Shown here one piece after another: positions 1-28,103 of a stretch of DNA of 38,390 nt. Below the pieces are notes generated by a model, which was not told the DNA's origin, searched no databases, and saw nothing but the letters and a program-made list of their open reading frames with translations. Each line of letters opens with the position of its first letter. Positions within the stretch are counted from its first letter, which is position 1. This stretch comes from an uncultured Bacillota bacterium (GTDB lineage: Bacteria; Bacillota; Clostridia; Christensenellales; Borkfalkiaceae), in contig CASEHS010000012.1 in the NCBI GenBank assembly GCA_949287815.1, positions 26,866 through 65,255 of the forward strand. Reading direction: 5' to 3'. The position numbers and the translations under genes are program-made.

Positions 1-554
1 ACCGAAAGGATATTCTTTTTTGCGATCGCCATTCTGTAACCGTCGAGCGCGGTGAAAGACACACATCCTTCTTTCGTTTCGATCAGGCAGCCTTTGAGAA
101 CGGGTCTCGAATCGTCCTGCGCGCAGCAAAAGGTCGTTTTCGCGACGAGATCTTTGAGATCTTTTGCTTTCAAAGAAAAATGCGATTCGCGGACATTGAG
201 ATCGATCGCAGGAAAATCCTGTGCTTTGAGAACCTGGATACAGCTTTCGGAATTTCCGTATCTGATATTGAGCTTGTCCTCTTCGCCGGCCATGACGATC
301 TGTACGTTTTCCAGTTTCTTAATAAAATCCGCGAAATATTTACCGGGTACGCAGAGTTCTCCCTCTTCTAAAACTTCCGCTTTTATCTTTTTCTCGATGG
401 AGATCTCCGAATCGGTTGCAAGCAGAATAAGCGTATCGTTCACTGCGGAAAGCTTGATACATTCCAATATCGGATTTGTCGTTTTCGTGCTGCAAGCCTT
501 GACAACTTTCATTACTGCGTCGGAAAGATCCACGCCTTCACAGATTATTTTCAT
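1..554 (-). CDS. dnaN: DNA polymerase III beta sliding clamp, N-terminal half (partial; 3' end lies beyond the window edge)
   Basis: - strand reading frame is open from the ATG at 552-554 to position 1. Translation MKIICEGVDLSDAVMKVVKACSTKTTNPILECIKL...SRPVLKGC...TALDGYRMA matches beta-clamp domains I-II (compare B. subtilis TRPILTGV / ATDSHRLA). GGAGG RBS at 559-563 (complement). The + strand ORF 52..603 is the antisense shadow. Confidence 0.85.
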   Translation of the reverse strand, partial: MKIICEGVDLSDAVMKVVKACSTKTTNPILECIKLSAVNDTLILLATDSEISIEKKIKAEVLEEGELCVPGKYFADFIKKLENVQIVMAGEEDKLNIRYGNSESCIQVLKAQDFPAIDLNVRESHFSLKAKDLKDLVAKTTFCCAQDDSRPVLKGCLIETKEGCVSFTALDGYRMAIAKKNILS

Positions 555-602
555 AATTCCTCCGTTCAAGAAAAAATTCTACCCTTACGGGATTATTATA
601 TA

Positions 603-989
603 AATATATTTTATTATAAAATGTTATTATTAATAATAAGGGATGTAGAATTGTGCATAACTTCGCTCAAATCCCGAAAAACATCCTCTTTTAACTGTAT
701 TATATATAAAAACGCAGAAAAAAGCAAGCAACTTACCGATAAAAAGGTGTGGACAATCGTTGATTTTTCTGGGGATAAACTCGGGGATAAAGAGTGGAAA
801 TGTAAATAGACTTTCCACAAAGCGGGCAGAAGTATGAGTGAGCAATAGAAGAAAAAGAAAGGAAAAAAGGTAGTTATCAAGAATTACACAAGAGAAATCA
901 ACAATGTGGAAAACCGGAAGTGGAAAAGGTGGATAAGCAATTTTTACAAAATAATTGAAAAAGAAAAAAAAGTATGATATAATAAAAAT
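603..989. other. Candidate replication origin (oriC-like): AT-rich spacer with DnaA-box cluster between divergent dnaN and rsmG
   Basis: DnaA-box-like 9-mers (consensus TGTGGATAA / TTATCCACA) with 1 mismatch or fewer at 748-756 (TGTGGACAA), 770-778 (TGGGGATAA), 905-913 (TGTGGAAAA), 928-936 (GGTGGATAA). Two-mismatch copies at 782-790, 812-820, 921-929. Extremely AT-rich tracts at 601-650 and 940-989 could be unwinding elements. Flanking genes are transcribed away from the region. Confidence 0.45.
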
Positions 990-1679
990 ATGGAACAAAA
1001 TCAGGAAAAAATATGGTTTTCTCTCATCAATGAAGGGAAAACGGGCGAGAAATTCGAAAGATTTTACGGGCTTTTAACCGAATACAACGAAAAATTCAAT
1101 CTTACACGGATTGTGGATAAAGAGGATTGCAAGATAAAACATTTTCTGGACAGTATTTCGGGCGAAAGATTTTTTCCGAAAGGCGCGAGCGTTGCGGAGA
1201 TCGGTTCGGGCGGGGGATTTCCTTCCGTGCCGCTGATGATCGTAAGGGAAGATCTGAAATTCACTTTGATTGAATCGTCCGAAAAAAAGTGTGTTTTTTT
1301 AAGGGAAATCTGTAAACAACTTGATCTGAATGCCGAAGTTTATCATTTGCGTGCGGAAGAGGCGGCAAGAACGCAGCAATTTCGGGAAACATTCGATGTT
1401 TGCTGCGCAAGAGCGGTAGCAAGGCTCAACACTCTTTCCGAATATTGTATCCCGTTCGTAAAAAAAGGCGGAAGATTCATAGCATATAAGGGAAAGGCGG
1501 AAGAAGAAATTTCGGAAACAGGGCATGCTTTTGAAGTTTTGGGCGTAAAACTTGTCAAAGCGGAGTGTTTTACTTTGCCCGACGGATCGGAAAGGGCGAT
1601 CATCGTGGCAGAGAAGGTAAAAGGTACGCCGGACGGGTATCCGAGAGGACGGGGAAAAGAGAGGAGTAAACCGCTGTGA
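990..1679 (+). CDS. rsmG: 16S rRNA (guanine527-N7)-methyltransferase RsmG (GidB)
   Basis: 229 aa. SAM-binding motif EIGSGGGFP, LIES..KK..FL and the overall sequence are typical of RsmG. Confidence 0.9.
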   Translation: MEQNQEKIWFSLINEGKTGEKFERFYGLLTEYNEKFNLTRIVDKEDCKIKHFLDSISGERFFPKGASVAEIGSGGGFPSVPLMIVREDLKFTLIESSEKKCVFLREICKQLDLNAEVYHLRAEEAARTQQFRETFDVCCARAVARLNTLSEYCIPFVKKGGRFIAYKGKAEEEISETGHAFEVLGVKLVKAECFTLPDGSERAIIVAEKVKGTPDGYPRGRGKERSKPL

Positions 1680-7850: not shown

Positions 7851-9017
7851 TTAAAATATCTGCAAGAAAAACGCTTTGAGATAGTTTGTCTCTTCCGCGG
7901 TGAGCAGGGCGGGATGATCGGGAGCCTGAACGCGCACTTCCACGCATTTTACCCGTCTGCCGCTTGCCCTTGCGGCGTCTGCGAGCGTCTTTTCAAACAG
8001 CGGCAGCGTCATATAGTGGGAACAGGAGCAGGTGATCAGAAAACCGCCGCGTTTAACGAGTTTCATGGCGGTGAGGTTGATATCGCGGTAGCCGCGCGCG
8101 GCGTCCTTCACTTCTGCCGCGCTCTTGCAAAAAGCAGGGGGATCGAGGATCACGCAGTCAAATTCCGCCTTTTCCGCGCGGAATTTTCTTAAAAGTTCAA
8201 ACGCGTCTCCGCACAGAGTGTGAATATTTTTAAAACCGTTGAGCTCGGCGTTTTTCTTTACGTTTTCGAGGGCAAATTCGGAAATATCTACGGCGGTCAC
8301 TTCTTTTGCGCAAGTTGCGGCGTTGAGAGAAAAGCCGCCGCTGTTGCAGAAGCAGTCGAGGACTGACCCTTCCGCGCAATACCGCCTCGCCGCGAATCTG
8401 TTTTCTTTCTGATCGAGAAAATACCCCGTTTTCTGTCCGTTTTTCACGTCTACGGAGAGGAGAATGCCGTTTTCGCGAATGACGATCTCATCGGGTACTT
8501 CCCCGAAAAGCACTTTCGATTCAAGCGGAAGCCCTTCTTTTTTTCGTACCTGCACGTCGCCGCGCATATAGATCCCTTTGGGCGAAAACAACTCTTTCAG
8601 ACATTCGGCGATGAGTTCTTTACGCTCATCAATCCCGAAAGAAAGGCACTGCATCACGAGATAATCGCCGTATCTGTCCACGATCAGCGCGGGAAGATCG
8701 TCCGCTTCGGCAAAGACCATGCGGTAGCAATCGTCAAAAATAAGTTTTTTGCGCGCACGGTCGGCTTCTTCCAGCCTTTTAAGGTAGAAAGCCTTGTCGT
8801 CCACCTCGTCGCCGCGGATAAAAATGCGCACGAGGATCTTGGAAAGGTGGTTGATGTAACCTTTACCGATAAATCTTCCGTCGTTTGCGTACACTTCGGC
8901 AAGCGAGCCGTTTTTGTCTTTCCCTTCGATTTTCGCAACTTCGTTGGCATAAACCCAGCTGTGGCCGCCCGCGATGCGTTTTTCTTCGTTCTTTTTGAGA
9001 TAAATTTTGTAAGGCAT
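7851..9017 (-). CDS. rlmI: Class I SAM-dependent 23S rRNA m5C methyltransferase, RlmI-like (PUA + MTase)
   Basis: The six-frame ORF runs to 9161, but the RlmI-like start MPYKIYLKKNEEKRIAGGHSWVY (the GHPWVF-type PUA start) is the ATG at 9017. The 48 upstream codons are low-complexity. Catalytic Cys region TCSCSHYM. Confidence 0.78.
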   Translation of the reverse strand: MPYKIYLKKNEEKRIAGGHSWVYANEVAKIEGKDKNGSLAEVYANDGRFIGKGYINHLSKILVRIFIRGDEVDDKAFYLKRLEEADRARKKLIFDDCYRMVFAEADDLPALIVDRYGDYLVMQCLSFGIDERKELIAECLKELFSPKGIYMRGDVQVRKKEGLPLESKVLFGEVPDEIVIRENGILLSVDVKNGQKTGYFLDQKENRFAARRYCAEGSVLDCFCNSGGFSLNAATCAKEVTAVDISEFALENVKKNAELNGFKNIHTLCGDAFELLRKFRAEKAEFDCVILDPPAFCKSAAEVKDAARGYRDINLTAMKLVKRGGFLITCSCSHYMTLPLFEKTLADAARASGRRVKCVEVRVQAPDHPALLTAEETNYLKAFFLQIF

Positions 9018-9154
9018 AAATTTTTCCAAATACTGCGCCGAAAGGCGCGGTTGTTTTATTGAAAAGAAGTATATCAAAAACAGATAAAAAACGCAACTTT
9101 TCCGTGCGGCAGGGCAAGAAAAAGGGATGTGCCGCATTGCGGCGGGGGCAATGC

Positions 9155-9183
9155 TTGACAAAAATTATGCTTTGCGTTACAAT
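9155..9183 (+). promoter_or_regulatory. Consensus sigma-A promoter of dxs
   Basis: TTGACA (9155-9160), 17 nt, TACAAT (9178-9183). About 95-nt leader to the dxs ATG. Confidence 0.7.
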
Positions 9184-9280
9184 TAACAAAAAAAGAAGGA
9201 TTGCTTTTATCGGCGTTTGTTCGGTAAAAGGTATTATTCCGCTGCGCCCTGCGTAAAATAGAGAGCGCGGAGGGCAAAGC

Positions 9281-11089
9281 ATGCTGACGGACGAAATCAG
9301 AACATATAAGACAGGACAACTCAAACAACTTGCAAAAGAACTTCGGGAAGAGATCATCGGCGGCGTAAAGGAGAGCGGAGGGCATCTTTCTTCCAATCTC
9401 GGAACGGTGGAACTTACGCTTGCACTGCATAAAGTATTTTCATTTCCGCAGGATAAGTTGATTTTCGATGTAGGGCATCAGAGTTATACGCATAAACTGC
9501 TCACGGGCAGAACGCTTAAAAATCTTCGCCACGCTGGCGGAGCAAGCGGCTTTCCCGACCCTGAGGAGAGCGAATACGATACGTTCGCCTGCGGACACAG
9601 CGGAACGTCTGTCGCGCTCGGCATCGGACTTTGCAATGCGCGCGATCTTGCGGGGGGAAAGGAAAAAGTGATCGCCGTGATCGGAGACGCTTCGCTCGGC
9701 AACGGGCTTGCGCTCGAATCGATCTTTGCGGCGGACACGAAACCGAATAACTTTATCGTGATCCTCAACGATAACGGAATGTCTATCGATAAAAACAATT
9801 CCGCACTCTATAAATCCGTTTCTAAAATGACGGTAAAAAAGCGTTACCGCCGTTTTAATTCTTTTGTTTCGCGCGTATTTCGGGAAACGAGTGCGTTCGG
9901 CAGATATCTTCGGAAAATCAAATACAGTATCAAGGGCTGGCTCAATAAAAACGACTTTTTTGAGCGTTGCGGGTTCAAGTACATAGGCCCCGTGAACGGA
10001 CACGATCTTAACGAACTCGTCGCGGTTTTGTCGAATATCCGAGATCTTGAAGAACCTGTATTTTTGCATGCGATCACAAGAAAAGGGTACGGCTTCGATG
10101 CCGCGGAAGAGGATCCCGCCCGTTATCACGGAGTAGGCAAAAATTTTGCGGAAAGTGAAAATTCTTTTTCAAACGCGCTCGGAAGACATCTTTTGCTCCG
10201 CGCGGGCGAAGATAGAAACCTCGTGGCGGTAACTGCCGCCATGACGGACGGGGTAGGTCTTTCGGATTTTGCGAAAGCTTTTCCCGATCGGCTGTTCGAC
10301 GCGGGAATCTGCGAAAGTTATGCCGTGGCAATGGCTGCGGGTATGGCAAAGAGCGGTTTAAGGCCTGTTGTTTGTATCTATTCCACCTTTCTGCAACGCG
10401 CGTACGATCAGATCGTGCACGATGTGTGCCTGCAAAACCTGCCCGTAATTTTTTGTATCGATCGGGCGGGACTGGTCGGTTCGGACGGAAAAACGCACCA
10501 GGGGCTTATGGATATATCTTTTCTAAGATCCATTCCCAATCTTACTCTGTATGCGCCGAAAGACTGCGCAGAATTTGCGGATATTTTCGATTTTGCCTAT
10601 GCGGTGGGCAGACCTGCGGCGATCCGATACCCGAACGGCTATGCGCCTAATCTCGGTTCGGCGCGCAGGATAGAAACTTCGCTTTGGGAAATAATTTCGG
10701 ACGGCAACGGCGTTGCGGTGCTTGCCTGCGGTGCAAGGGCAGTAGCCCGCGCACTGGAAGCGAAAAAAATGGTCGCGCCGCTCAATCCGAAAATCATAAA
10801 TTGCAGAAGCATAGAGCCGTTGGACGAAAGAATTCTCGAAAGCGTTTCGGGAATGAAGATTTTAACTTTTGAAGAAGGTTATGCCTCGGGCGGGTTCGGC
10901 TCTGCGGTCGCCGAATATTATGCGAGAAACGCAAAGTCGGTGTTTTTGAAGATCATCGGCGCAGAGAGCGGGTTTGTGCCGCACGGAGCTTGCGAAGAGC
11001 AGGCGGCGTGGCTGAAAATTACGGCAAACGACCTCGCGTTGAAGATCCGCGCGGCTTTTTCGGACGGAAGAAACGGATATATTTTCTAA
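9281..11089 (+). CDS. dxs: 1-deoxy-D-xylulose-5-phosphate synthase
   Basis: 602 aa. TPP-binding GHSGTS...GDASLGNG and transketolase-like pyrimidine/C-terminal domains. Confidence 0.93.
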   Translation: MLTDEIRTYKTGQLKQLAKELREEIIGGVKESGGHLSSNLGTVELTLALHKVFSFPQDKLIFDVGHQSYTHKLLTGRTLKNLRHAGGASGFPDPEESEYDTFACGHSGTSVALGIGLCNARDLAGGKEKVIAVIGDASLGNGLALESIFAADTKPNNFIVILNDNGMSIDKNNSALYKSVSKMTVKKRYRRFNSFVSRVFRETSAFGRYLRKIKYSIKGWLNKNDFFERCGFKYIGPVNGHDLNELVAVLSNIRDLEEPVFLHAITRKGYGFDAAEEDPARYHGVGKNFAESENSFSNALGRHLLLRAGEDRNLVAVTAAMTDGVGLSDFAKAFPDRLFDAGICESYAVAMAAGMAKSGLRPVVCIYSTFLQRAYDQIVHDVCLQNLPVIFCIDRAGLVGSDGKTHQGLMDISFLRSIPNLTLYAPKDCAEFADIFDFAYAVGRPAAIRYPNGYAPNLGSARRIETSLWEIISDGNGVAVLACGARAVARALEAKKMVAPLNPKIINCRSIEPLDERILESVSGMKILTFEEGYASGGFGSAVAEYYARNAKSVFLKIIGAESGFVPHGACEEQAAWLKITANDLALKIRAAFSDGRNGYIF

Positions 11090-11160
11090 ATCTTACTTGT
11101 ATGTTTAAAAGCATTGTGACAGGGTAAGAATGAATAAAAAAACGGATAAAGGGATAGATA

Positions 11161-11928
11161 ATGCAATTTTTAAGCGCAATCAATCTGGACGCATCGTTTT
11201 CCGCCTGGCTGGGGGGAATTTTTGCGAAAATATTCGGCGATAACGCCTGGCTGGCAACGATACTGATCTCCATGATCCCGATGATCGAACTCAAAGGCGG
11301 CATTTTATTCGGCAGGAATGTAGATTTTTGGGGCAGGAACGCGCTTACGGCGGGGCAGGCGTATGCCTGCGGTCTTGCGGGCGGCCTGATCGTGACGATC
11401 ATACTCGCTCTGCTTTTGAAGCCTGTATTCGATTGGCTCAAAAAGACCAAGCTTTTCAGGCGTTTTGCGCTTCGTTTTGAAAAATCCGTACTTCGCAAGG
11501 CGGATAAGGCAGTAAAAGGCGGAGCAAGCGAAGATGTGAAAAAGAACTCGGAGCAGGAACAAAAGGAAGAAGAGACGAGCGGAAACGAAAAGAGAGTATT
11601 TTGGCAGATGCTCGGCGTGTTCTGTTTTGTTGCAGTGCCGCTGCCGCTCACGGGCGTGTGGATGGGTACGGCGATCGGGGTATTTATCGGGCTCAAATTC
11701 TGGCAGACGCTGATCGCGGCTTTTTGCGGAAATGCCGTTGCGGGCATCATCATCGTTTTGGTCAGCGAAATTTTCTTTGATTATCTGAATATTGTTTTTT
11801 TCATACTTTTAGGGATCGTCGCGGTGCTTATCGTTGTCGGTATCGTGAAAATGGTCATCGATTCCCGCCGCGAAAAACGGGAAGGGGTGAAAGAGGAGAA
11901 AAATTCGGACGAGAAAACAACAGATTAA
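11161..11928 (+). CDS. Polytopic membrane protein, COG2426 / putative small multidrug-export-like family
   Basis: 255 aa. Motifs IPMIELKGGILFG and GNAVAGIIIVLV resemble Pfam Sm_multidrug_ex. A charged central loop is inserted. Function unknown. Confidence 0.5.
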   Translation: MQFLSAINLDASFSAWLGGIFAKIFGDNAWLATILISMIPMIELKGGILFGRNVDFWGRNALTAGQAYACGLAGGLIVTIILALLLKPVFDWLKKTKLFRRFALRFEKSVLRKADKAVKGGASEDVKKNSEQEQKEEETSGNEKRVFWQMLGVFCFVAVPLPLTGVWMGTAIGVFIGLKFWQTLIAAFCGNAVAGIIIVLVSEIFFDYLNIVFFILLGIVAVLIVVGIVKMVIDSRREKREGVKEEKNSDEKTTD

Positions 11929-11957
11929 AATATTGATATAATATATAATAAAAAAAA

Positions 11958-11988
11958 GCGTAAGGAAAATTCCTTGCGCTTTTTTTGA
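11958..11988 (+). terminator. Rho-independent terminator
   Basis: agcgtaagg-aaaatt-ccttgcgct followed by TTTTTTT. Confidence 0.7.
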
Positions 11989-12044
11989 AAAAGTGTTTTC
12001 GGAAAGTAAAAATTATTGAATTGCGCATACTGAAAGTGTCGGAT

Positions 12045-12098
12045 TTTACAATTTAATTACAAAATACAGAAAAAGAATATACAATTTGGGGCTATACT
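12045..12098 (+). promoter_or_regulatory. pstS promoter with Pho-box-like TT(T/A)ACA direct repeats
   Basis: TTTACA 12045-12050, TTACAA 12057-12062, TATACA 12078-12083, with ACA cores phased 11 and 22 bp apart. Then 9 nt and the -10 TATACT 12093-12098. There is no -35, as in B. subtilis PhoP-activated promoters. Confidence 0.5.
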
Positions 12099-12130
12099 GA
12101 AATCACAAAGAAAGAAGGAGAAAAAAAGAA

Positions 12131-13027
12131 ATGAAGAAATTATTGCTTGCGATCCTTACAGTCGCATTGGCATGCGGTATCGGATTTGCCGCAGTAGGAT
12201 GTTCGGAAGAGGCGATGTCCGACACGATCAGCGTAATTACCCGTGAGGACGGTTCCGGCACGCGCGGTGCTTTTGTGGAACTTACGGGCGTACAGGCCGA
12301 AGTAGACGGCGAAAAAGTAGACAGAACGACAACTTCCGCGGAAGTTGCAAACTCCACGAGCGTTGTTATTCAGAAAGTCAAGGATAACAAGAGCGCGATC
12401 GGTTATGTTTCGCTCGGTTCGCTGACGGACGATATCAAAGCGGTACCTTACGAAGGCGTACAGGCGTCGGTTGAAAACATTAAAAACGGAACTTATAAAC
12501 TTTCCAGACCTTTCAATGTAGCTTACAAAGCGGATAACGACAACGCAACGCTTGCTGATTTCCTGAAATATATCAAGAGCGACGAAGCAAAGACGATCAT
12601 TGAAAGCGAAGGGTATATCGGACCTGAAAGTACGCAGGCTTACACCAAACCTGAAACTGCACCCACGGAAGAGCTTGTCATCAACGGATCTTCTTCGGTA
12701 CATCCTTTGATGGAAAAATTGGTCGCGGCATATTGCACGGCGTCGGGTGTTGCGGCATCTAAGATCAAACTCGGCTACAACGATTCGACTTCCGGAATGA
12801 ACGGCGCAATGAACGGAACATATGACCTTGGTATGGCTTCGCGTGAACTTAAAGCGGCGGAAGCAGAAGCGCTTACCGGATACGTGCTCGCTACGGACGG
12901 TATTGCGGTAGTCGTAAATAAATCCAACCCCGTTGAAAGTCTTACAAAAGACCAAATCTCTAAGATCTATATCGGAGAAGCAAAGAAATGGTCTGACGTC
13001 GGTGTAGACGTAAATGAAGCGAAATAA
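12131..13027 (+). CDS. pstS: Phosphate ABC transporter substrate-binding lipoprotein PstS
   Basis: 298 aa. Lipoprotein signal (LACGIGFAAVGC). ITREDGSGTRGAF and SGxxxA motifs of the PstS family. Confidence 0.9.
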   Translation: MKKLLLAILTVALACGIGFAAVGCSEEAMSDTISVITREDGSGTRGAFVELTGVQAEVDGEKVDRTTTSAEVANSTSVVIQKVKDNKSAIGYVSLGSLTDDIKAVPYEGVQASVENIKNGTYKLSRPFNVAYKADNDNATLADFLKYIKSDEAKTIIESEGYIGPESTQAYTKPETAPTEELVINGSSSVHPLMEKLVAAYCTASGVAASKIKLGYNDSTSGMNGAMNGTYDLGMASRELKAAEAEALTGYVLATDGIAVVVNKSNPVESLTKDQISKIYIGEAKKWSDVGVDVNEAK

Positions 13028-13040
13028 GCAGAACAATAAA

Positions 13041-13065
13041 GCGGGCTGGGAGCAGCCCGCTTTTT
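13041..13065 (+). terminator. Intra-operon hairpin/attenuating terminator between pstS and pstC
   Basis: gcgggctg-ggag-cagcccgc followed by TTTTT. Commonly found after pstS to raise PstS stoichiometry. Confidence 0.55.
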
Positions 13066-13102
13066 CCGCGTAAGGAAAAAGTATAAAAATTTTGGAGAAA
13101 AA

Positions 13103-14011
13103 ATGACAGAAACAACAATTACGCAAAACGGCGAAGCGGTGATCCGCAGAAACAAAAAGACAGACTTAAAAGAGCTGCTCATGAAAATCGTATTCATCAT
13201 CGCGGCAGTCTGTTTTATAGCAGCAGTGTTGATTATTTGCCTTTTTATATTCATGCAGGCAGTCCCTGCGATCGCGGAGATCGGATTTTTTAAATTCCTG
13301 TTCGGTACGGAATGGAAACCGTCGGACACAAACCCCAAATTCGGCATAGCGACGATGATCGTAGGTTCTTGCTATGTTACGGCAGGGGCGTTGGTTTTAG
13401 GCGTGCCTGTCGGATTTCTGACGGCGGTATTTATGGCAAGGTATTGCCCGAAACCGCTTTACAGGGTAATGAAACCCGTCACCAACATACTTGCGGGTAT
13501 TCCTTCCATCGTATACGGGTATTTCGGTCTGACCGTAATAGTCCCGCTTGTAAGAAGAACGTTCGGCGGTTCGGGTTCATCCATTTTAACTGCTTCGATC
13601 ATTCTTGCGATCATGATCCTGCCTACGATCATCAGCGTATCGGAAAACGCGATCCGTGCTGTGCCGAAGAGCTATTATGAAGGTGCGGTTGCGCTCGGGG
13701 CGACAAAAGAACGGGCAATCTTCTGCACGGAAGTGCCTGCTGCAAAATCGGGTATCGTAACTTCTATAATACTCGGGCTTGGCAGAGTCATCGGCGAAAC
13801 GATGGCGGTCGTTATGATCGCGGGAAACCAGCCGCAGTTCCCTTCCTCGATCACGGACGGTGTTCGAACGATGACCGCGAACATTGTATTGGAACTCGGC
13901 TATGCGACCGATCTTCACCGCGGTGCGCTGATCGCAACGGCGGCAGTGCTGTTCGTATTCATTCTGCTCATCACCATGCTGATCGCGCTTGTGCGCAGAA
14001 AGGCAAAATAA
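13103..14011 (+). CDS. pstC: Phosphate ABC transporter permease PstC
   Basis: 302 aa, 6 TM helices, PstC-type EAA loop. Confidence 0.9.
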   Translation: MTETTITQNGEAVIRRNKKTDLKELLMKIVFIIAAVCFIAAVLIICLFIFMQAVPAIAEIGFFKFLFGTEWKPSDTNPKFGIATMIVGSCYVTAGALVLGVPVGFLTAVFMARYCPKPLYRVMKPVTNILAGIPSIVYGYFGLTVIVPLVRRTFGGSGSSILTASIILAIMILPTIISVSENAIRAVPKSYYEGAVALGATKERAIFCTEVPAAKSGIVTSIILGLGRVIGETMAVVMIAGNQPQFPSSITDGVRTMTANIVLELGYATDLHRGALIATAAVLFVFILLITMLIALVRRKAK

Positions 14012-14021
14012 GGAGGAGAAC

Positions 14022-14948
14022 ATGGAAAAAGCAATTCCGATCGGAAAAGAACCGAAAAACGAACCTGATATATCCTCGATTGTGCCGATCAACCGCGTAA
14101 CTTTTGCAGACAAAATACGTTCATATCTGAAAAAGCCCTTTTCGTTTATGATCATGCTGCTCGTAATGCTGGCGGCGCTCATCACGGTTGGTTCGGTCGC
14201 ATGGGTCATTCTGCATACATTCATCAGCGGAATACCCAATCTCAAACCCGAACTTTTCGAATGGGAATATACCCCTGAAAATCTTTCCATGATGCCCGCC
14301 ATCATCAACACGCTGTTCATTGCGGCGGTGTCGCTTGCGATCGCAGTGCCGATCGGCGTGTTTGCGGCGATCTTCATGGTAGAATATGCAAAATCGACCA
14401 ATTTTCTCGTCAAAATCGTGAGAATGGCGGCAGAAACGCTTGCGGGCATCCCGTCTATCGTATACGGCATTTTCGGTATGCTGTGCTTTGTGTACTTTTT
14501 CGGCTGGGGCGAGAGCGTCCTTTCCGGCTCGCTTACGATGGCGCTTATGATCCTGCCTCTTGTGATGCGCACGACGGAAGAAGCCTTAAAAGCCGTGCCG
14601 GACACCTTCCGCGAAGGAAGTTATGCGCTGGGCGCGGGAAAACTTCGAACTATTTTTGTCATCATATTGCCTTCCGCAATGTCGGGTATCATTTCGGGCG
14701 TCATATTGGGTCTGGGCAGAGTCGTCGGCGAAACGGCGGCGCTCATATTCACGGCAGGTTCGTATTCGTTCGTGGCGGGAGGATTCATGGAAGGCGGCAG
14801 AACGCTTGCCGTACACGTATATATCCTTGCGTCTAACGGCTTATATGAGGATCAGGCCTGGGCGGCGGCGGTCGTTTTGATCTTGCTTGTCGTTGTGATC
14901 AACGGTCTTGCGGAATTTGTCGGAAACAAACTGAAAAAGGAGTACTGA
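14022..14948 (+). CDS. pstA: Phosphate ABC transporter permease PstA
   Basis: The ORF opens at 13989, but AAGGAGGAG then ATG at 14022 (MEKAIPIG) is the likely start. PstA-type permease. Confidence 0.88.
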
Positions 14949-22340: not shown

Positions 22341-23252
22341 TTACAGGCTTTCCAGATAGAGGGAAGCGTTGGTTGCGGCGATCGCGCCGTCGGAAACGGC
22401 GGTGGAAACCTGACGCACTGCTTTTGTGCGGCAATCTCCTGCCACGAACACGCCTTCCGTCTTTGTCTTGCAGTTTTCGTCCGCTATGATATAGCCCGCG
22501 CTGTCAAGATCGGCTACGTTTGAAAACGCCGCGTTGTCGGGAACCTGTCCGATCGCAACGAAAACCGCGGGGATCTCCTGCCTTAAAAGGTTGCCGTCTT
22601 TATCGGTGTATTCTATGGCTGTAAGTTCATCTTCGCCTATGAAATCGACCACGCTCGTGTTCGGGCGCACTTCGATATTCTCTTTTGTGCGAAGTGTCTT
22701 GATGAGGTTTGCGTCGCCGAAAAATTTATCGAAGAGGGTATACATATACACTTTTTTGCAATAACCCGAGAGGAGCAGGGCGTATTGAAGCGCCGAGTTC
22801 GCGTCGCCGATCACGGCAACTTCCTGCCCTTTGTAAGCGGGACCGTCGCATACGGCGCAGTAGTAAACGCCTTTTCCGACAAGGTCTTCGCGGTCGTGTT
22901 TGGTTTTGAGGTGTTTGTGCTTCACGCCCGCGGCAATGATCACGCTCTTTGCGCAGTATTCGCTGTATTCGGTCTTTACGACAAAAGTTTTGTCGGGCTG
23001 TTTTTCGATATGTACGGCTTTGTCGATCTCTATTTCCGCGCCGAGGTCGGAGATCTGTTCAAAAAGATTGTCCGCAAACGCCTCGCCGCTGATCTCCTTT
23101 ATCGAAGGAAAGTTTTCAAGGCGCGGAGAAGTTGCGATCTGACCGCCCAAGCTTTCCCCTTCGAGAACGAGTACTTTTTTTCCGTTTCTTAAAGCATAGA
23201 GTGCGGAGGTCATGCCTGCCGCACCCGCGCCGATCACTATGATGTCGTACAT
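22341..23252 (-). CDS. Thioredoxin-reductase-like flavoprotein lacking canonical NADPH-binding motifs (candidate ferredoxin-dependent FFTR-type)
   Basis: 303 aa. FAD GxGxxG (VIGAGAAG) and redox-active CAVCDG are present. The second dinucleotide site reads VIGDANSA instead of GGGNSA, and no HRRD motif follows. The ATG lies 1 nt after the nrdD stop. Confidence 0.8.
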   Translation of the reverse strand: MYDIIVIGAGAAGMTSALYALRNGKKVLVLEGESLGGQIATSPRLENFPSIKEISGEAFADNLFEQISDLGAEIEIDKAVHIEKQPDKTFVVKTEYSEYCAKSVIIAAGVKHKHLKTKHDREDLVGKGVYYCAVCDGPAYKGQEVAVIGDANSALQYALLLSGYCKKVYMYTLFDKFFGDANLIKTLRTKENIEVRPNTSVVDFIGEDELTAIEYTDKDGNLLRQEIPAVFVAIGQVPDNAAFSNVADLDSAGYIIADENCKTKTEGVFVAGDCRTKAVRQVSTAVSDGAIAATNASLYLESL

Positions 23253-23253
23253 A

Positions 23254-25620
23254 TCAGCCGATACTCTCTATATATTTTTTGATTTCACTGGGATTATCGT
23301 AAATTTTGAAGCTGTCGCCGTCGGGAACAAGCAACGTGGAAGCGTTTTTGATGCCGTACTTGATCGCAGTCTCTTTATCCTGTTCTGCGTTGATAACGGT
23401 GTATCTGATGCCCGCTTTATCGAGGAGCATTTTGCTCGTCTTGCACTTAGGGCAGTTATCTCTTGTAAAGAGGATAGGAGCAGTAAGAGAAGGAGCGGCG
23501 CAGCAAGCCTGTTCTGCTTTTTCCTGCTGAACTTTTTTGGTTTTCAGCGTGGAATGCTCGATATCGTAGACTTTTCTGTCCTTGAATTCCTGAGATTTTC
23601 CGTCGTTCCAGTTCTGAACGGGGCGGTAGTAACCGGTTATACGGCTGTATACTTCCGTTTTAGCTCCGCAGTGCGGGCAGGTGAACTGTTCGCCTGCAAG
23701 GTAACCGTGATCCTTACAGATGGAATAGGTCGGGGAAAGTGTGTAGTAGGGCAGTTTGTAGTTGTCTGCGATTTTCTTGACGAGAGCGGCAGCCGCTTTC
23801 CAGTCGGGCAGTTTTTCGCCGAGGAAGGCGTGGAATACCGTACCGGAAGTGTAGAGGGTCTGCAATTCGTCCTGAATATCGAGCGCGTCGAAGATGTCCT
23901 CGGTAAATCCGACGGGCAGATGCGAGCTGTTGGTGTAATAAGGCGTTCCGTTTTCGTTCGCCGTCTTGATATTGGGGAACTGTTTTTTATCGTGTTTTGC
24001 GAATCTGTATGCGGTGGATTCCGCGGGGGTCGCTTCGAGGTTGTAGAGGTCGCCGTATTCTTCCTGATAATCGGAGAGGCGTTCACGCATATGGTTGAGT
24101 ACGCGCTTTGTGAATTCCTGCGCTTCGGGGGAAGTCATATCCTTGCCGATCCAGCAGGCATTGAGTGCGGCTTCGTTCATACCGACAAGCCCGATCGTCG
24201 AGAAGTGGTTAGCGAATGTGCCGAGATAGCGTTTCGTGTACGGATACAGACCTTCGTCGAGGAGTTTGGTGATAACGGTACGCTTTGTTTTGAGCGAGCG
24301 CGCCGAAATATCCATGAGTTTATCCAGCCTTGACATAAACTCTTCTTCCGACTTGGAAAGATAAGCGATCCTCGGCATATTGATTGTCACAACGCCGACC
24401 GAACCGGTCGATTCGCCGCTTCCGAAGTATCCGCCCGATTTTTTGCGCAGTTCGCGAAGATCGAGACGCAGACGGCAGCACATACTGCGGATATCGCTCG
24501 GTTCCATATCCGAGTTGATGTAGTTGGAGAAATAAGGGGTGCCGTACTTGGAAGTCATTTCGAAGAGCAGGCGGTTGTTTTCGGTATCCGACCAGTCGAA
24601 ATTCTTCGTAATGGAATAGGTAGGGATAGGGTACTGGAACCCTCTGCCGTTGGCGTCGCCCTCGATCATCACTTCGATGAAGGCTTTGTTTACCATATCC
24701 ATTTCTTTCTGGCAGTCTTTATATTTGAAATCCTGGTTCTTTCCGCCGACGATCGCGGGCAGTTCCGCAAGATCGGCAGGTACAGTCCAGTCGAGGGTGA
24801 TATTCGAGAAAGGTGCCTGCGTACCCCAACGGCTGGGCGTATTTACGCCATAAATAAAGGATTCGATGCACTTTTTGACCTGTTCGTAAGAGAGGTTGTC
24901 CTTTTTCACGAACGGAGCGAGGTAAGTATCGAAAGAGGAGAACGCCTGAGCGCCTGCCCATTCGTTCTGCATAATGCCGAGGAAGTTGACCATCTGGTTG
25001 CAGAGAGTCGCGAGGTGGCTTGCGGGCGCGGAAGTGATTTTTCCGGGAATACCGCCGAGGCCTTCCTGAATGAGTTGTTTGAGCGACCAGCCTGCGCAGT
25101 AGCCTGTGAGCATGGAAAGATCGTGGATATGGATATCCGCGTTCTTGTGCGCGCGGGCGATTTCGTCGTCATAGATCTCGGACAGCCAGTAGTTCGCCGT
25201 GATCGCGCCGCTGTTGGAGAGGATAAGTCCGCCGACCGAATAGGTAACGGTGGAGTTTTCCTTTACGCGCCAGTCAGTCGCCTTAACGTAACTGTTCACG
25301 AGTTCTTTATAGTCGAGAATGGTCGACTTCATGTTACGCAGTTTTTCTCTCTGTCTGCGGTAGAGGATGTACGCCTTTGCGACGTCCGAATATCCCGCCT
25401 GGATAAGTACAGACTCCACGCTGTCCTGAATATCTTCCACAGCGATCTTGTCGTTTTGTATTTTGGATTCGAAATCAGCGGTCACTTTGAGTGCGAGCAT
25501 ATCCAGAATGCTCGGATGCGTCTGTTTTCCCTGTGCTTCAAACGCTTTGCCGATTGCCGCGGAAATTTTCTTGATATCAAATTCCGCTATTTTTCCGTCT
25601 CTTTTGATTACATTGAACAT
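23254..25620 (-). CDS. nrdD: Anaerobic ribonucleoside-triphosphate reductase NrdD (class III) with C-terminal glutaredoxin/NrdH-like domain
   Basis: ATG at 25620 follows GGAAAGGAG (the ORF opens further upstream at 25734). ATP-cone, Zn-ribbon CKDHGY...CPHCG and glycyl-radical motif RITGYY. A ~100-aa C-terminal extension follows, with linker ...EQACCAAPS... and a thioredoxin-fold segment ILFTRDNCPKCKTSKMLLDKAGIRYTVI. Confidence 0.92.
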   Translation of the reverse strand: MFNVIKRDGKIAEFDIKKISAAIGKAFEAQGKQTHPSILDMLALKVTADFESKIQNDKIAVEDIQDSVESVLIQAGYSDVAKAYILYRRQREKLRNMKSTILDYKELVNSYVKATDWRVKENSTVTYSVGGLILSNSGAITANYWLSEIYDDEIARAHKNADIHIHDLSMLTGYCAGWSLKQLIQEGLGGIPGKITSAPASHLATLCNQMVNFLGIMQNEWAGAQAFSSFDTYLAPFVKKDNLSYEQVKKCIESFIYGVNTPSRWGTQAPFSNITLDWTVPADLAELPAIVGGKNQDFKYKDCQKEMDMVNKAFIEVMIEGDANGRGFQYPIPTYSITKNFDWSDTENNRLLFEMTSKYGTPYFSNYINSDMEPSDIRSMCCRLRLDLRELRKKSGGYFGSGESTGSVGVVTINMPRIAYLSKSEEEFMSRLDKLMDISARSLKTKRTVITKLLDEGLYPYTKRYLGTFANHFSTIGLVGMNEAALNACWIGKDMTSPEAQEFTKRVLNHMRERLSDYQEEYGDLYNLEATPAESTAYRFAKHDKKQFPNIKTANENGTPYYTNSSHLPVGFTEDIFDALDIQDELQTLYTSGTVFHAFLGEKLPDWKAAAALVKKIADNYKLPYYTLSPTYSICKDHGYLAGEQFTCPHCGAKTEVYSRITGYYRPVQNWNDGKSQEFKDRKVYDIEHSTLKTKKVQQEKAEQACCAAPSLTAPILFTRDNCPKCKTSKMLLDKAGIRYTVINAEQDKETAIKYGIKNASTLLVPDGDSFKIYDNPSEIKKYIESIG

Positions 25621-25674
25621 AAACTTTTCTCCTTTCCCCCGTAGACTGCTTTTTTCGATCGGTGAAGTAGACCC

Positions 25675-25703
25675 ATTATAGCACCATAAAATGGCTTTGT
25701 CAA
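25675..25703 (-). promoter_or_regulatory. Consensus sigma-A promoter of nrdD
   Basis: On the - strand: TTGACA (complement of 25698-25703), 17 nt, TATAAT (complement of 25675-25680). Confidence 0.7.
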
Positions 25704-25746
25704 CATATTGTGGCAAAAAAATTCCGTGAAACACAATATATTGTGT
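25700..25746 (-). promoter_or_regulatory. Tandem NrdR boxes
   Basis: Box 2 ACACAATATATTGTGT (25731-25746) is a perfect 16-bp palindrome matching the NrdR-box consensus. Box 1 TCAACATATTGTGGCA (25700-25715) is degenerate and overlaps the -35. The centre-to-centre distance is 31 bp. Confidence 0.7.
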
Positions 25747-25788
25747 GTTTCACGGATAAAGATCAAAAATTATGAAATGATGAGAAAA

Positions 25789-26478
25789 TCAGCCGTTTTC
25801 GCCGCGGATGAGAACGGAGGGGACGAAAGGCTTTAAAATTCTTTTAAAAGTCTGCAATTCGTCGTCGGAAAAGGGGGTAAGCCCTTTTTGGAGAACGAAT
25901 TCGCTGTCCTTGAAGTTCTGTAAAAAATACCGCTTCGCGCCTTTGATGCGCTTTCCGATGTCGATAAAGTCTTCCGTTTTGTGGAATTCTTTGACTGCGG
26001 TGGTGCGAAATTCGTATTCGACTTTTCCCGAGAGTAGAAAGGCTATGCTCTCTTCGATCTTGGAAAAATCGCAGTGTACACCTGCCGTGCGCTCGTATTT
26101 TGCACGCGAATTTTTAATATCCATCGCGACAAAATCGACGAGTCCTTCTAAGACGAGGCTTTTGAGTTTTTCGGGGAAAGAGCCGTTCGTATCCAGTTTT
26201 ACCGCATAGCCGAGCGATTTTATTTTGCGGATAAACTCCTCAGTGCCTGCCTGTAAAAGCGGTTCGCCGCCCGAAACGCATACTCCGTCGAGTATGCCCT
26301 TGCGTTTTTCGAGGAAATCAAAAAATTCTTTTTCGGGGATCTCGCCTTCCGCAATGTCGAGAATCTCACCGTTCTGGCAGAACGGACAGCGGAAGTTGCA
26401 GCCCGAAAGGAATACCGTACAGGCAACTTTTCCCGGAAAATCGAGCAGGGTCGTTTTTTGCAGTCCTGAAATTTTCAT
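25789..26478 (-). CDS. nrdG: Anaerobic ribonucleotide reductase activating protein NrdG (radical SAM)
   Basis: ATG at 26478 follows GGAGG (the ORF opens at 26574). CNFRCPFCQN radical-SAM cluster motif, with a glycine-rich SGGEP loop downstream. 229 aa. Confidence 0.88.
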   Translation of the reverse strand: MKISGLQKTTLLDFPGKVACTVFLSGCNFRCPFCQNGEILDIAEGEIPEKEFFDFLEKRKGILDGVCVSGGEPLLQAGTEEFIRKIKSLGYAVKLDTNGSFPEKLKSLVLEGLVDFVAMDIKNSRAKYERTAGVHCDFSKIEESIAFLLSGKVEYEFRTTAVKEFHKTEDFIDIGKRIKGAKRYFLQNFKDSEFVLQKGLTPFSDDELQTFKRILKPFVPSVLIRGENG

Positions 26479-26623
26479 GGCATTCCTCCGAAAGATTGTG
26501 CATTCCATTATACACTTTTTTTCATAAAAGGAAAGAACTTTGACCCCTATTTTCGAAATGTTTGAAAATAACATAAAAAACCGAGCGGAAATCGGCGTAG
26601 TATTTTTGTGCGTTTTAGAAAAG

Positions 26624-26684: not shown

Positions 26685-28103
26685 ATGAAATTTGAAAAAC
26701 TCAGAAAAGAAGATATAGTTACACTTTTACCCTGGCTGAGACGGCAGAATACGCACATCAGCAACTATTCGGCAGCATTTTTATTTATGTGGCACAGACA
26801 CCAGAATGCGTGGTTCGCGACGGTGGGCGACTGCCTAATTCTTCGCGAACAGTTTGTGAAAATGCCGTATTTTTACTATCCCATATCGCTCAGCGGCAGT
26901 GAAGAAGAGGAGCGTGCGGCAATTTCCGCTTTGGAAGAGTATTGCAGAGAAAACAAAGAGCGTCTGCATTTTACCAATGTTCCGAAAAATAAACTTTGCG
27001 AACTCGTGCCGAGATACGGTGCGGACGTGCATATCTCCAACCTTCGCAAATGGCGGGATTTTCTGTACAGAACGGAAGATTTCAGAAGTTTTGCGGGCGG
27101 AAAATACAGCGGACAGCGAAATCATATCAATAAATTTAAAAAAAATTATCCTGACGCGCAGATGTATCCGTTCAGGCAAGAGGATGTCGGCGAGGTTTTG
27201 AAGTTCCTTGACGCATACTCTGCCGTACAGCTGAGCAAGGACACGTTTTTGGCAAAAGAAGAATTGCGCGCCGTCAGGGAAGTCTTGCCTTTTATCGAAA
27301 AGCTCGATCTTGTCGGGGCGTATGTTCGCATCGGCGGTAAAATCGTGTCTTTCGTGATCGGAGAAAAGTGCGGGGATATGATGATCGTGGTAGTGGAAAA
27401 GGCTCTTCGGGAATATGAAGGGATTTATCCCGCGACTGCGCAGATGTTCGCAAATAATTTTTGCGGTGATGAGATAGAGTATTTAAACCGCGAGGACGAT
27501 GCGGGGGATCTGGGACTTCGCAAATCCAAAATGCAGTATCTGCCTTGTGAACTTGTGGATAAATACAATCTTGCCATACACCGCCCGATCGATACACTTT
27601 CCAAATTCCCCGAAATCAGAACGCAGCGGCTGGTGCTTAAAAAGATCGGTAAGGAAGATACTGCCGAATATGCCCGCCTTGCAAGGGATGAAGAGCTCAA
27701 CCGTTATTGGGGCTATGATTGGAAAAAAGACGCACCCGAGGACGTTTCGGACGAATGGTTTTTAAAAGACGTATACACTGATTTTAAAAATAAAGACGAA
27801 ATAAGATTAGGTATCTATTCAGAGGGAACACTGATCGGCGAAGCGACGCTCTATAATTTCGGCTATCGGGCCGAAGCGGAATTCGGCGTGCGCGTATCGA
27901 AAGAATATCAGGGCAGAGGTTTTGCAAAAGAAGCGGCGATCGGGCTTTGCGGTTACGGATTTTCCGTTCTCAATCTTGAAAGGATAGAGGCGAAGTGTTA
28001 TAAACCCAATCAGCCGTCCGCAAAGATGTTGCAGGCATCGGGTATGCGCCCTTGCGGGGAAGACGAAACTTTTTTGTATTTTTATAAGACGGCTGCAATG
28101 TAA
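26685..28103 (+). CDS. Fusion protein: DUF2156 (LPG-synthase-C-like aminoacyl-transferase fold) plus RimL/RimJ-type GNAT N-acetyltransferase
   Basis: 472 aa. Residues ~1-300 carry DUF2156 hallmarks (GGKYSGQRNHINKF; INREDDAGDLGLRKSK). Residues ~310-470 form a GNAT of the Acetyltransf_3 type (RLVLKKIGKED...YQGRGFAKEA). SD is weak. Confidence 0.65.
   Translation: MKFEKLRKEDIVTLLPWLRRQNTHISNYSAAFLFMWHRHQNAWFATVGDCLILREQFVKMPYFYYPISLSGSEEEERAAISALEEYCRENKERLHFTNVPKNKLCELVPRYGADVHISNLRKWRDFLYRTEDFRSFAGGKYSGQRNHINKFKKNYPDAQMYPFRQEDVGEVLKFLDAYSAVQLSKDTFLAKEELRAVREVLPFIEKLDLVGAYVRIGGKIVSFVIGEKCGDMMIVVVEKALREYEGIYPATAQMFANNFCGDEIEYLNREDDAGDLGLRKSKMQYLPCELVDKYNLAIHRPIDTLSKFPEIRTQRLVLKKIGKEDTAEYARLARDEELNRYWGYDWKKDAPEDVSDEWFLKDVYTDFKNKDEIRLGIYSEGTLIGEATLYNFGYRAEAEFGVRVSKEYQGRGFAKEAAIGLCGYGFSVLNLERIEAKCYKPNQPSAKMLQASGMRPCGEDETFLYFYKTAAM

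Follow-up and report, generated by a model that had tools for sequence, protein, structure and literature searches.

Where does a chromosome begin to replicate when dnaA is missing from its usual place beside dnaN? The question is raised by the left end of a 38,390-nucleotide stretch of DNA (contig CASEHS010000012.1; the window) from an uncultured chicken-gut member of the Clostridia, Candidatus Borkfalkia. Here, dnaN and rsmG diverge from an intergenic spacer of 435 bp (555–989; 30% GC), in which an original prediction, made from the sequence alone, saw a cluster of DnaA boxes and a candidate chromosomal replication origin (oriC) in a rearranged origin region. Box density, a switch in GC skew and a conserved unwinding module support that proposal, and we conclude that the spacer (~555–989) is very probably the oriC of this Borkfalkia-like bacterium. 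With the same confidence we describe it as a compact origin that retains a module of the incC/oriC2 type at dnaN together with a distal cluster of boxes, dnaA having been removed from its neighbourhood. The flanking genes, the identities and strands of which bear out the predicted divergence, are:

1–554, minus strand: 5′ part of dnaN (first 184 codons), from its translation and Pfam (PF00712, E = 2.7e-28, and PF02767)
990–1679, plus strand: rsmG (gidB), Pfam PF02527 (E = 1.6e-46), transcribed away from the spacer

The DnaN fragment (554 down to 3) comprises the N-terminal and central domains of the DNA polymerase III β clamp. It was scanned against one genome per GTDB species, and the best 80 loci, from 80 different assemblies, were retained. 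These dnaN loci show 54–80% identity and all come from uncultured gut Clostridia (Candidatus Borkfalkia, Borkfalkiaceae or ‘Christensenella sp.’). They were examined as loci of ~20 kb, with 10 kb on each side; spacer statistics are based on 75 related loci and the alignment on 30 spacers from 30 species. The dnaN–rsmG spacer in these relatives is usually 280–560 bp long.

The DnaA-box cluster is real. All four boxes named in the original prediction are present, each with one mismatch (TGTGGACAA at 748–756, TGGGGATAA at 770–778, TGTGGAAAA at 905–913 and GGTGGATAA at 928–936), and a fifth one-mismatch box (TGTGCATAA) lies at 652–660; all five are oriented toward dnaN. Four more boxes have two mismatches (782–790, 811–819, 874–882 and 919–927). 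Upstream of the 652–660 box, the cluster includes:

748–790, minus strand: middle DnaA boxes TTGTCCACA (748–756), TTATCCCCA (770–778) and TTATCCCCG (782–790, two mismatches), all pointing to dnaN
811–819, plus strand: inverted weak DnaA box CTTTCCACA (two mismatches), from the box scan; both orientations occur in relatives 300–450 bp upstream of dnaN
905–936, minus strand: rsmG-proximal DnaA boxes TTTTCCACA (905–913), TTTTCCACT (919–927, two mismatches) and TTATCCACC (928–936), from the box scan

An oriC is expected to contain at least three DnaA boxes with a mean spacing below 100 bp (PMC7561715); here, five one-mismatch and four two-mismatch boxes fall inside 285 bp. Dinucleotide-preserving shuffles of the spacer contain on average 0.14 boxes with at most one mismatch, and none of 5,000 reaches the observed five; for boxes with at most two mismatches, the mean is 1.76 and a single shuffle in 5,000 reaches the observed nine. 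The remaining 37 kb of the window hold only five boxes with at most one mismatch, among them a perfect one in rsmG (1112–1120). Boxes are also far above background across the 75 related loci, in which their density is 7.3 per kb in the spacer and 0.27 per kb elsewhere, a 27-fold enrichment. Within 300 bp of dnaN, 130 of 132 boxes in the relatives point to the gene, and orientation is mixed at 300–450 bp upstream. The box positions form conserved islands in the 30-species alignment, that at 748–756 being strongly conserved in relatives, as TTATCCACA.

The strongest evidence for an origin went unnoticed in the original prediction: the dnaN-proximal box belongs to a module that, read in the dnaN sense (minus strand), runs TTATGCACA (660–652), ATTCTACA (651–644), TCCC (643–640) and TTATTATTA, followed by an AT-rich tract. 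Its parts are:

652–660, minus strand: trio-proximal DnaA box TTATGCACA (one mismatch), pointing to the trios and dnaN; the relatives’ consensus is TTATCCACA
644–651, minus strand: second, degenerate DnaA box ATTCTACA, abutting the first, with four mismatches by the counting of the published table; counterpart of AATCCACA (box 7) in Bacillus subtilis
640–643, minus strand: GC-rich spacer TCCC (4 nt), separating the tandem boxes from the trios; counterpart of GGCC in B. subtilis
625–639, plus strand: DnaA-trios, 3′→5′ AAT AAT AAT TAT TAT (in the dnaN sense, 5′-TTA TTA TTA ATA ATA-3′)
592–630, no strand: AT-rich tract, the candidate DNA unwinding element, with lowest stability at 593–632; an AT-rich tract also follows the trios in the displayed relatives

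DnaA-trios have the motif 3′-[G/A]A[T/A]-5′ (PMC7561715) and require the central A (PMC8287927). The published sequence rules for the basal unwinding system call for a box with at most two mismatches that points toward the trios, optionally followed by a second box with at most four mismatches and a gap of at most 3 bp; a box-to-trio spacer of at most 16 bp (mode 12–13) with a GC-rich end; and at least three consecutive trios with a central A, the consensus being 3′-GAT-5′ (Richardson 2016/2019; Pelliciari et al. 2021). The window module has each of these features, its box-to-trio spacer being 12 bp long and ending in TCCC. Many relatives carry ATTCCACA or AATCAACA at the second-box position, and their trios, in the same place, are (C/T)TA repeated three to nine times, or 3′-GAT AAT (A/G)AT-5′. 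A permissive pattern recovers the module in 61 of the 75 loci, with a 12-bp spacer in 45 of these and a 13-bp spacer in 4. Inspection of the 14 missed loci by eye revealed near-variants in 13 (for example, ATA as the third trio) and no obvious module in one, L079. In 57 of the 75 loci, a strict pattern (box with at most two mismatches, spacer of 11–13 bp and at least three YTW trios) matches the spacer on its dnaN-sense strand; across 1.29 Mb of flanks, both strands counted, it matches only 8 times, so that the enrichment is ~300-fold.

AT-rich tracts had been predicted at both ends of the spacer and are found there: 951–990 is 90% AT and 593–632 is 97% AT. The latter is the least stable 40-mer in the whole 38-kb window (−33.5 kcal/mol compared with a mean of −54.7 and a standard deviation of 4.7, that is, 4.5 standard deviations), and it directly abuts the trios, as expected of the unwinding element of an oriC.

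GC skew in the window changes sign at ~650 and is positive on the plus strand across almost all of the 38 kb, except in two near-zero 1-kb bins; it persists across the minus-strand nrdD–nrdG block. In the pooled relatives, binned at 1 kb, skew is −0.156 immediately to the left of the spacer and +0.042 immediately to the right. The adjacent rsmG-side bin is negative in 71 of 74 loci, and each side holds its sign. Because divergent transcription alone could mimic such a switch, genes were split by orientation. For co-oriented genes, skew is +0.063 on the dnaN side and −0.063 on the rsmG side; for counter-oriented genes, it is +0.032 and −0.012, respectively. A skew component of ~0.04 thus changes sign at the spacer whichever way the genes run (0.09 in the window itself). 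About 70% of coding bases on either side are directed away from the spacer. Sequence of 8 kb or more on both sides was available for 44 loci; in 30 of them, compared with ~3 expected, the local minimum of cumulative skew lies no more than 500 bp from the spacer, mostly at its dnaN-proximal end. Both skew and gene orientation therefore switch at the spacer, as they do at an oriC, on the scale of 10 kb per side. The original prediction would have been undone by a skew switch located elsewhere; in the window and in the relatives’ 10-kb flanks, it is at the spacer.

The prediction was also right that dnaA does not lie between rsmG and dnaN. Using tblastn with B. subtilis DnaA (a query confirmed as DnaA by Pfam), we found no homologue in the 38-kb window, that is, within 37 kb on the rsmG side, and none within 10 kb on either side of dnaN in the 80 related loci. 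Of the origin indicator genes, dnaN adjoins the spacer and dnaA, over these same distances, does not. Indicator genes are lineage-specific, being dnaA in most bacteria and dnaN in some lineages, and origin finders already use them in this way (PMC10225481). As the consensus boxes and trios are strongly conserved, we infer that the genome does have a dnaA, presumably elsewhere on the chromosome. Both genes were found in 76 loci (window included), and in 75 of these rsmG is the immediate upstream neighbour of dnaN and diverges from it. In one locus (L028), the rsmG–ypsA block is inverted (8298–10001) and runs in the same direction as dnaN; the module is still directly upstream of dnaN, indicating that it is tied to dnaN and not to rsmG.

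The original prediction further held that the rnpA–yidC–jag–mnmE–mnmG block was absent between the two genes. It is right in that rnpA, yidC and jag are not in the spacer. However, in a close relative, Candidatus Borkfalkia excrementavium (locus L012), these genes are found directly downstream of dnaN: positions 10001–14573 contain dnaN followed by rpmH, rnpA, yidD, yidC and jag, all co-directional. Because the block follows dnaN there, rpmH–rnpA–yidD–yidC–jag has been shifted across the origin and not lost. In its usual place, on the other replichore, this block diverges from dnaA, and in L012 it is flipped behind dnaN; mnmE and mnmG are absent from its 10-kb flanks.

The arrangement of dnaN and rsmG without dnaA is a family-level trait and not an assembly artefact of the window’s contig. 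We also considered, and ruled out, that the window’s dnaN is a truncated duplicate of a gene paired with dnaA elsewhere: the L012 gene is full length (366 amino acids) in the same context, each assembly contributes a single dnaN locus to the best 80, and no relative has dnaA upstream. The left edge of the window cuts into dnaN, and an independent 3.4-kb Logan contig (ERR10610440_185309; retrieved by exact RsmG protein look-up) stops at the identical base, which suggests a break in the assembly graph (strain variation or a repeat) and not a true gene end. Because both contigs end at this base, the intactness of the window’s dnaN is inferred from the relatives. A search of metagenome_contigs for an exact 40-mer taken from the left edge of the window was negative, the DnaN fragment retrieved nothing beyond partial homologues, at most 80% identical and located on short contigs, and exact-protein look-ups of two genes near the window’s right end gave no record.

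The sequence anatomy of the spacer, its conservation, the enrichment of boxes and module, and the skew switch are directly observed here. By analogy with incC of B. subtilis, DnaA binding, filament growth on the trios, strand opening and origin firing would take place at the spacer in the following manner. DnaA from a gene elsewhere on the chromosome would bind the distal boxes (748–936) and would also occupy the orientation-fixed tandem boxes (652–660 and 644–651). ATP-DnaA would oligomerize from the tandem boxes onto the plus-strand DnaA-trios (639 down to 625), and the filament would open the adjacent 97%-AT tract (~592–630) for helicase loading. Forks would depart both ways from the spacer, so that dnaN and rsmG would each be co-oriented with their own fork.

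Transcription signals are interspersed with these elements:

699–727, minus strand: candidate sigma-70-type promoter to dnaN, conserved, with −35 TTGCTT (727–722), a 17-nt spacer and −10 TATAAT (704–699)
558–563, minus strand: dnaN ribosome-binding site GGAGGA, read from the sequence; GGAGG before the ATG is kept in relatives
955–983, plus strand: candidate rsmG promoter, TTGAAA, 17-nt spacer and TG-n-TATAAT (extended −10), with 11 of 12 consensus matches

The most conserved islands of the 30-species alignment are the boxes, the box-to-trio module and two promoter hexamer blocks (GCTTGCTTTTT and TATATAAT, 17 nt apart), the latter being the most invariant blocks other than boxes. On this basis, 699–727 is predicted to function as the dnaN promoter; the consensus scan did not report it because its −35 hexamer matches at only three of six positions. 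Its transcript would run over both tandem boxes, then the trios and unwinding element, before reaching dnaN; in other words, a promoter inside the origin would read through the unwinding site. Since this promoter lies within the box-bearing origin, the same boxes probably also let DnaA regulate dnaN. The rsmG promoter ends 6 nt upstream of the rsmG ATG, where there is no Shine–Dalgarno sequence, suggesting that the predicted rsmG mRNA is leaderless and starts at the A of the ATG. Most relatives (L002–L035 examined) have a GC-rich hairpin, typically TTTCCCGC...GCGGGAAA, of −9 to −19 kcal/mol between the AT tract and the dnaN ribosome-binding site. It could be a stabilizer of the 5′ untranslated region or a limit to unwinding. 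Its sequence varies among relatives, and its counterpart in the window, at 582–591, has 3 bp only. A terminator scan reported none, and we rejected this hairpin as a terminator.

These promoters bring in the strongest rival of an oriC, namely a divergent promoter region under DnaA control or a cluster that titrates DnaA, the true origin lying beside dnaA elsewhere. Box-bound DnaA would then regulate dnaN and perhaps rsmG, or the boxes would buffer the free DnaA pool; the original prediction had itself raised a second titration or regulatory site as the alternative. Two promoters do sit among the boxes, the conserved one to dnaN and the strong one to rsmG, with a box ~32–40 nt downstream of the predicted start of the dnaN promoter, and dnaA, the usual origin marker, is absent from the window. 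There are precedents as well: B. subtilis is reported to have six DnaA-box clusters outside oriC (PMC3245932), and the oriCII boxes of Pseudomonas aeruginosa, upstream of gidA, regulate the gidAB–parAB operon (PMC13438810). However, a regulatory or titration cluster could do without tandem boxes in fixed phase, a GC spacer, trios and an extremely AT-rich tract, all of which are kept here with a 12-bp spacer and ~300-fold enrichment. A non-origin cluster would also be expected away from a polarity switch and devoid of a trio and unwinding module, yet both are present at the spacer, with GC-skew polarity and gene orientation switching there family-wide. Nor does regulation compete with origin function, as the B. 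subtilis origin boxes also regulate dnaA–dnaN. We therefore regard this alternative as unlikely, since trios, unwinding element and skew switch all speak against it.

Less probable still is a split or dual origin of which the spacer forms one half (oriC2/incC-like), with a second cluster beside the relocated dnaA that is needed in trans or fires independently. For halves so far apart to cooperate by looping, across more than 10–37 kb, we know of no precedent. The idea draws on the fact that Firmicute origins are typically bipartite, with both halves required in vitro in Clostridioides difficile (PMC7561715), and on dual-origin predictions reported for other bacteria (bioRxiv 10.1101/2025.08.05.668638). 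Yet the spacer already carries a distal cluster 90–280 bp upstream of the tandem boxes, which suffices as a distal subregion in B. subtilis (PMC6669920). Finally, the boxes might be chance matches in an AT-rich promoter region, a thought invited by the 30% GC of the spacer and by a box consensus that is AT-rich at one end, but this is effectively refuted by 0/5,000 shuffles, the conserved islands of the 30-species alignment and the 27-fold enrichment over 75 loci.

Several points weigh against an origin at the spacer. A second, possibly primary, origin may exist beside dnaA. Over 10 kb, gene orientation confounds skew, counter-oriented genes on the rsmG side show a weak replication component (−0.012), and the skew support comes from the window and from 10 kb on each side in the relatives. 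This organism’s own sequence left of the spacer amounts to 554 bp, which is all there is of its dnaN side. The window’s proximal boxes are weaker than those of its relatives (one and four mismatches). In C. difficile, the dnaN-proximal region alone gave no unwinding in vitro without the upstream region (PMC7561715), and since that upstream region is needed too, a canonical module is no proof of a self-sufficient origin.

Taking the spacer as oriC, we tentatively propose, with a little less than even confidence, that Borkfalkiaceae collapsed an ancestral bipartite Firmicute origin into a compact, self-sufficient oriC of ~0.4 kb by evicting dnaA. A leftover internal promoter, possibly the former dnaA promoter, would now drive dnaN and the genes that follow it (rpmH–rnpA–yidD–yidC–jag in L012) through the unwinding site.

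To the right of rsmG are a YpsA/SLOG gene, a flotillin pair, feoAAB and then ordinary housekeeping and sporulation genes. The YpsA/SLOG-family gene (1676–2122) overlaps the rsmG stop codon and accompanies rsmG in nearly all related loci; rsmG–ypsA looks like a conserved origin-proximal pair in Borkfalkiaceae. A thioredoxin-reductase-like gene, nrdD and nrdG (22341–26574, minus strand) form the longest lagging-strand block in the window, with two one-mismatch DnaA boxes inside nrdG (25959–25967 and 26226–26234); nrd genes are under DnaA control in other bacteria. Within the spacer, the open reading frames 621–809 (plus strand) and 630–998 (minus strand) were rejected as genes, being of low complexity, overlapping conserved non-coding motifs and giving no Pfam hit (one checked). 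Scans of the window returned no parS-like site, no Rfam family and no tRNA. One further box lies close by:

1112–1120, minus strand: perfect DnaA box TTATCCACA in rsmG, 122 nt into the gene, at a position not conserved in relatives

This may be an outlying origin box or a chance match. A second perfect TTATCCACA box is found at 27554–27562, inside an LPG-synthase/GNAT gene, ~0.3 perfect boxes being expected per 38 kb. Minor box matches recur in the related loci in the rsmG coding sequence (24 loci, 700–800 bp upstream of the dnaN start) and within dnaN (11 loci, 700–750 bp downstream of its start); they probably reflect conserved peptides and not binding sites.

The closest known counterpart of the spacer is incC of B. 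subtilis, with which it shares distal boxes, tandem boxes, a 4-nt GC spacer, 3′-(G/A)AT-5′ trios, an AT tract and a position directly upstream of dnaN. A B. subtilis promoter upstream of the module drives transcription through it into dnaN, and the promoter inside the spacer that would read into dnaN resembles such read-through from the B. subtilis dnaA promoter. The B. subtilis module reads, 5′ to 3′, TTATCCACA, AATCCACA, GGCC and CTACTATTACTTCTACTA, with a 12-bp spacer as in the window, and the box-to-trio spacer is also 12 bp in Listeria and Oceanobacillus (Pelliciari et al. 2021, supplement). The distal subregion of incC acts by looping at 132–462 bp in either orientation, whereas its proximal boxes are orientation-fixed, and the distal boxes of the window, 90–280 bp upstream and in mixed orientation, match that distal subregion (PMC6669920). 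How boxes are oriented in the relatives, near to and farther from dnaN, agrees with this division. In contrast to B. subtilis, the spacer has no upstream dnaA and no separate incA/B region, the entire origin measuring ~435 bp; its upstream neighbour is divergent rsmG, and rpmH–rnpA–yidD–yidC–jag lies downstream of dnaN (L012) and not upstream of dnaA.

The clostridial arrangement rpmH–oriC1–dnaA–oriC2–dnaN (C. difficile and others, PMC7561715) is of the same class, with trios (of the type 5′-CTACTACTATTACTACTA-3′) and an unwinding element just upstream of dnaN and boxes before the trios. The placement of the C. difficile CTACTACTATTACTACTA trios upstream of the unwinding element and dnaN confirms our strand convention (PMC7561715). 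The clostridia in that study all keep dnaA–dnaN, and all but Clostridium tetani keep rpmH upstream (PMC7561715), whereas Borkfalkiaceae keep neither the dnaA–dnaN cluster nor an upstream rpmH, and no oriC1 lies across a dnaA. A bipartite Firmicute origin has dnaA between two box clusters and rpmH beyond; here there is no dnaA, and rpmH is downstream of dnaN in L012. By analogy, the spacer would work like incC, but it stands outside the bipartite class.

Beyond the Firmicutes, the oriC of Escherichia coli, between gidA/mnmG and mioC, is likewise unlinked to dnaA, and the gidA–gidB(rsmG) operon is transcribed away from it, as rsmG is here; this rearrangement of the E. coli origin has been noted before (PMC8287927, PMC6669920). 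The phylum is a different one, however, and the E. coli origin scores weakly for an unwinding module and uses integration host factor (IHF) and R-boxes, whereas the module in the spacer is textbook Firmicute. In cyanobacteria, again a different phylum, oriC adjoins dnaN and is unlinked to dnaA. The DnaA-box clusters (DBCs) of B. subtilis, datA of E. coli and oriCII of P. aeruginosa also place clustered boxes beside promoters, oriCII lying upstream of the gid operon and regulating it. To our knowledge, these clusters have neither a trio and unwinding-element module nor a skew switch to mark them; the spacer has both.

The rpmH–dnaA–dnaN order with a bipartite origin is treated as near-universal in Firmicutes, and origin predictors default to dnaA as the marker; in Borkfalkiaceae, origin prediction and read-depth estimates of growth rate should be anchored on dnaN instead. 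The locus supports the view that the conserved core of an origin is the module of box, trio and AT-rich DNA rather than the dnaA gene, and it offers a compact natural origin in which to test the contributions of a second box cluster and of dnaA proximity. If true, the eviction of dnaA would be a natural case in which the cis-linkage of dnaA and oriC, and a loop spanning dnaA, are dispensable in this phylum. Our literature search found nothing on Christensenellales or Borkfalkia origins. A whole Firmicute family with a broken rpmH–dnaA–dnaN arrangement, a monopartite, rsmG-flanked origin in that family and the dnaN–rpmH–rnpA–yidD–yidC–jag string of L012 all appear to be undescribed in the literature searched. 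Separation of the origin from dnaA has ample precedent (E. coli, cyanobacteria and others), and nothing in the unwinding module of the spacer departs from the canonical form. The dnaN–rsmG origin is thus a rearranged, family-wide variant of a known element, and involves no new mechanism.

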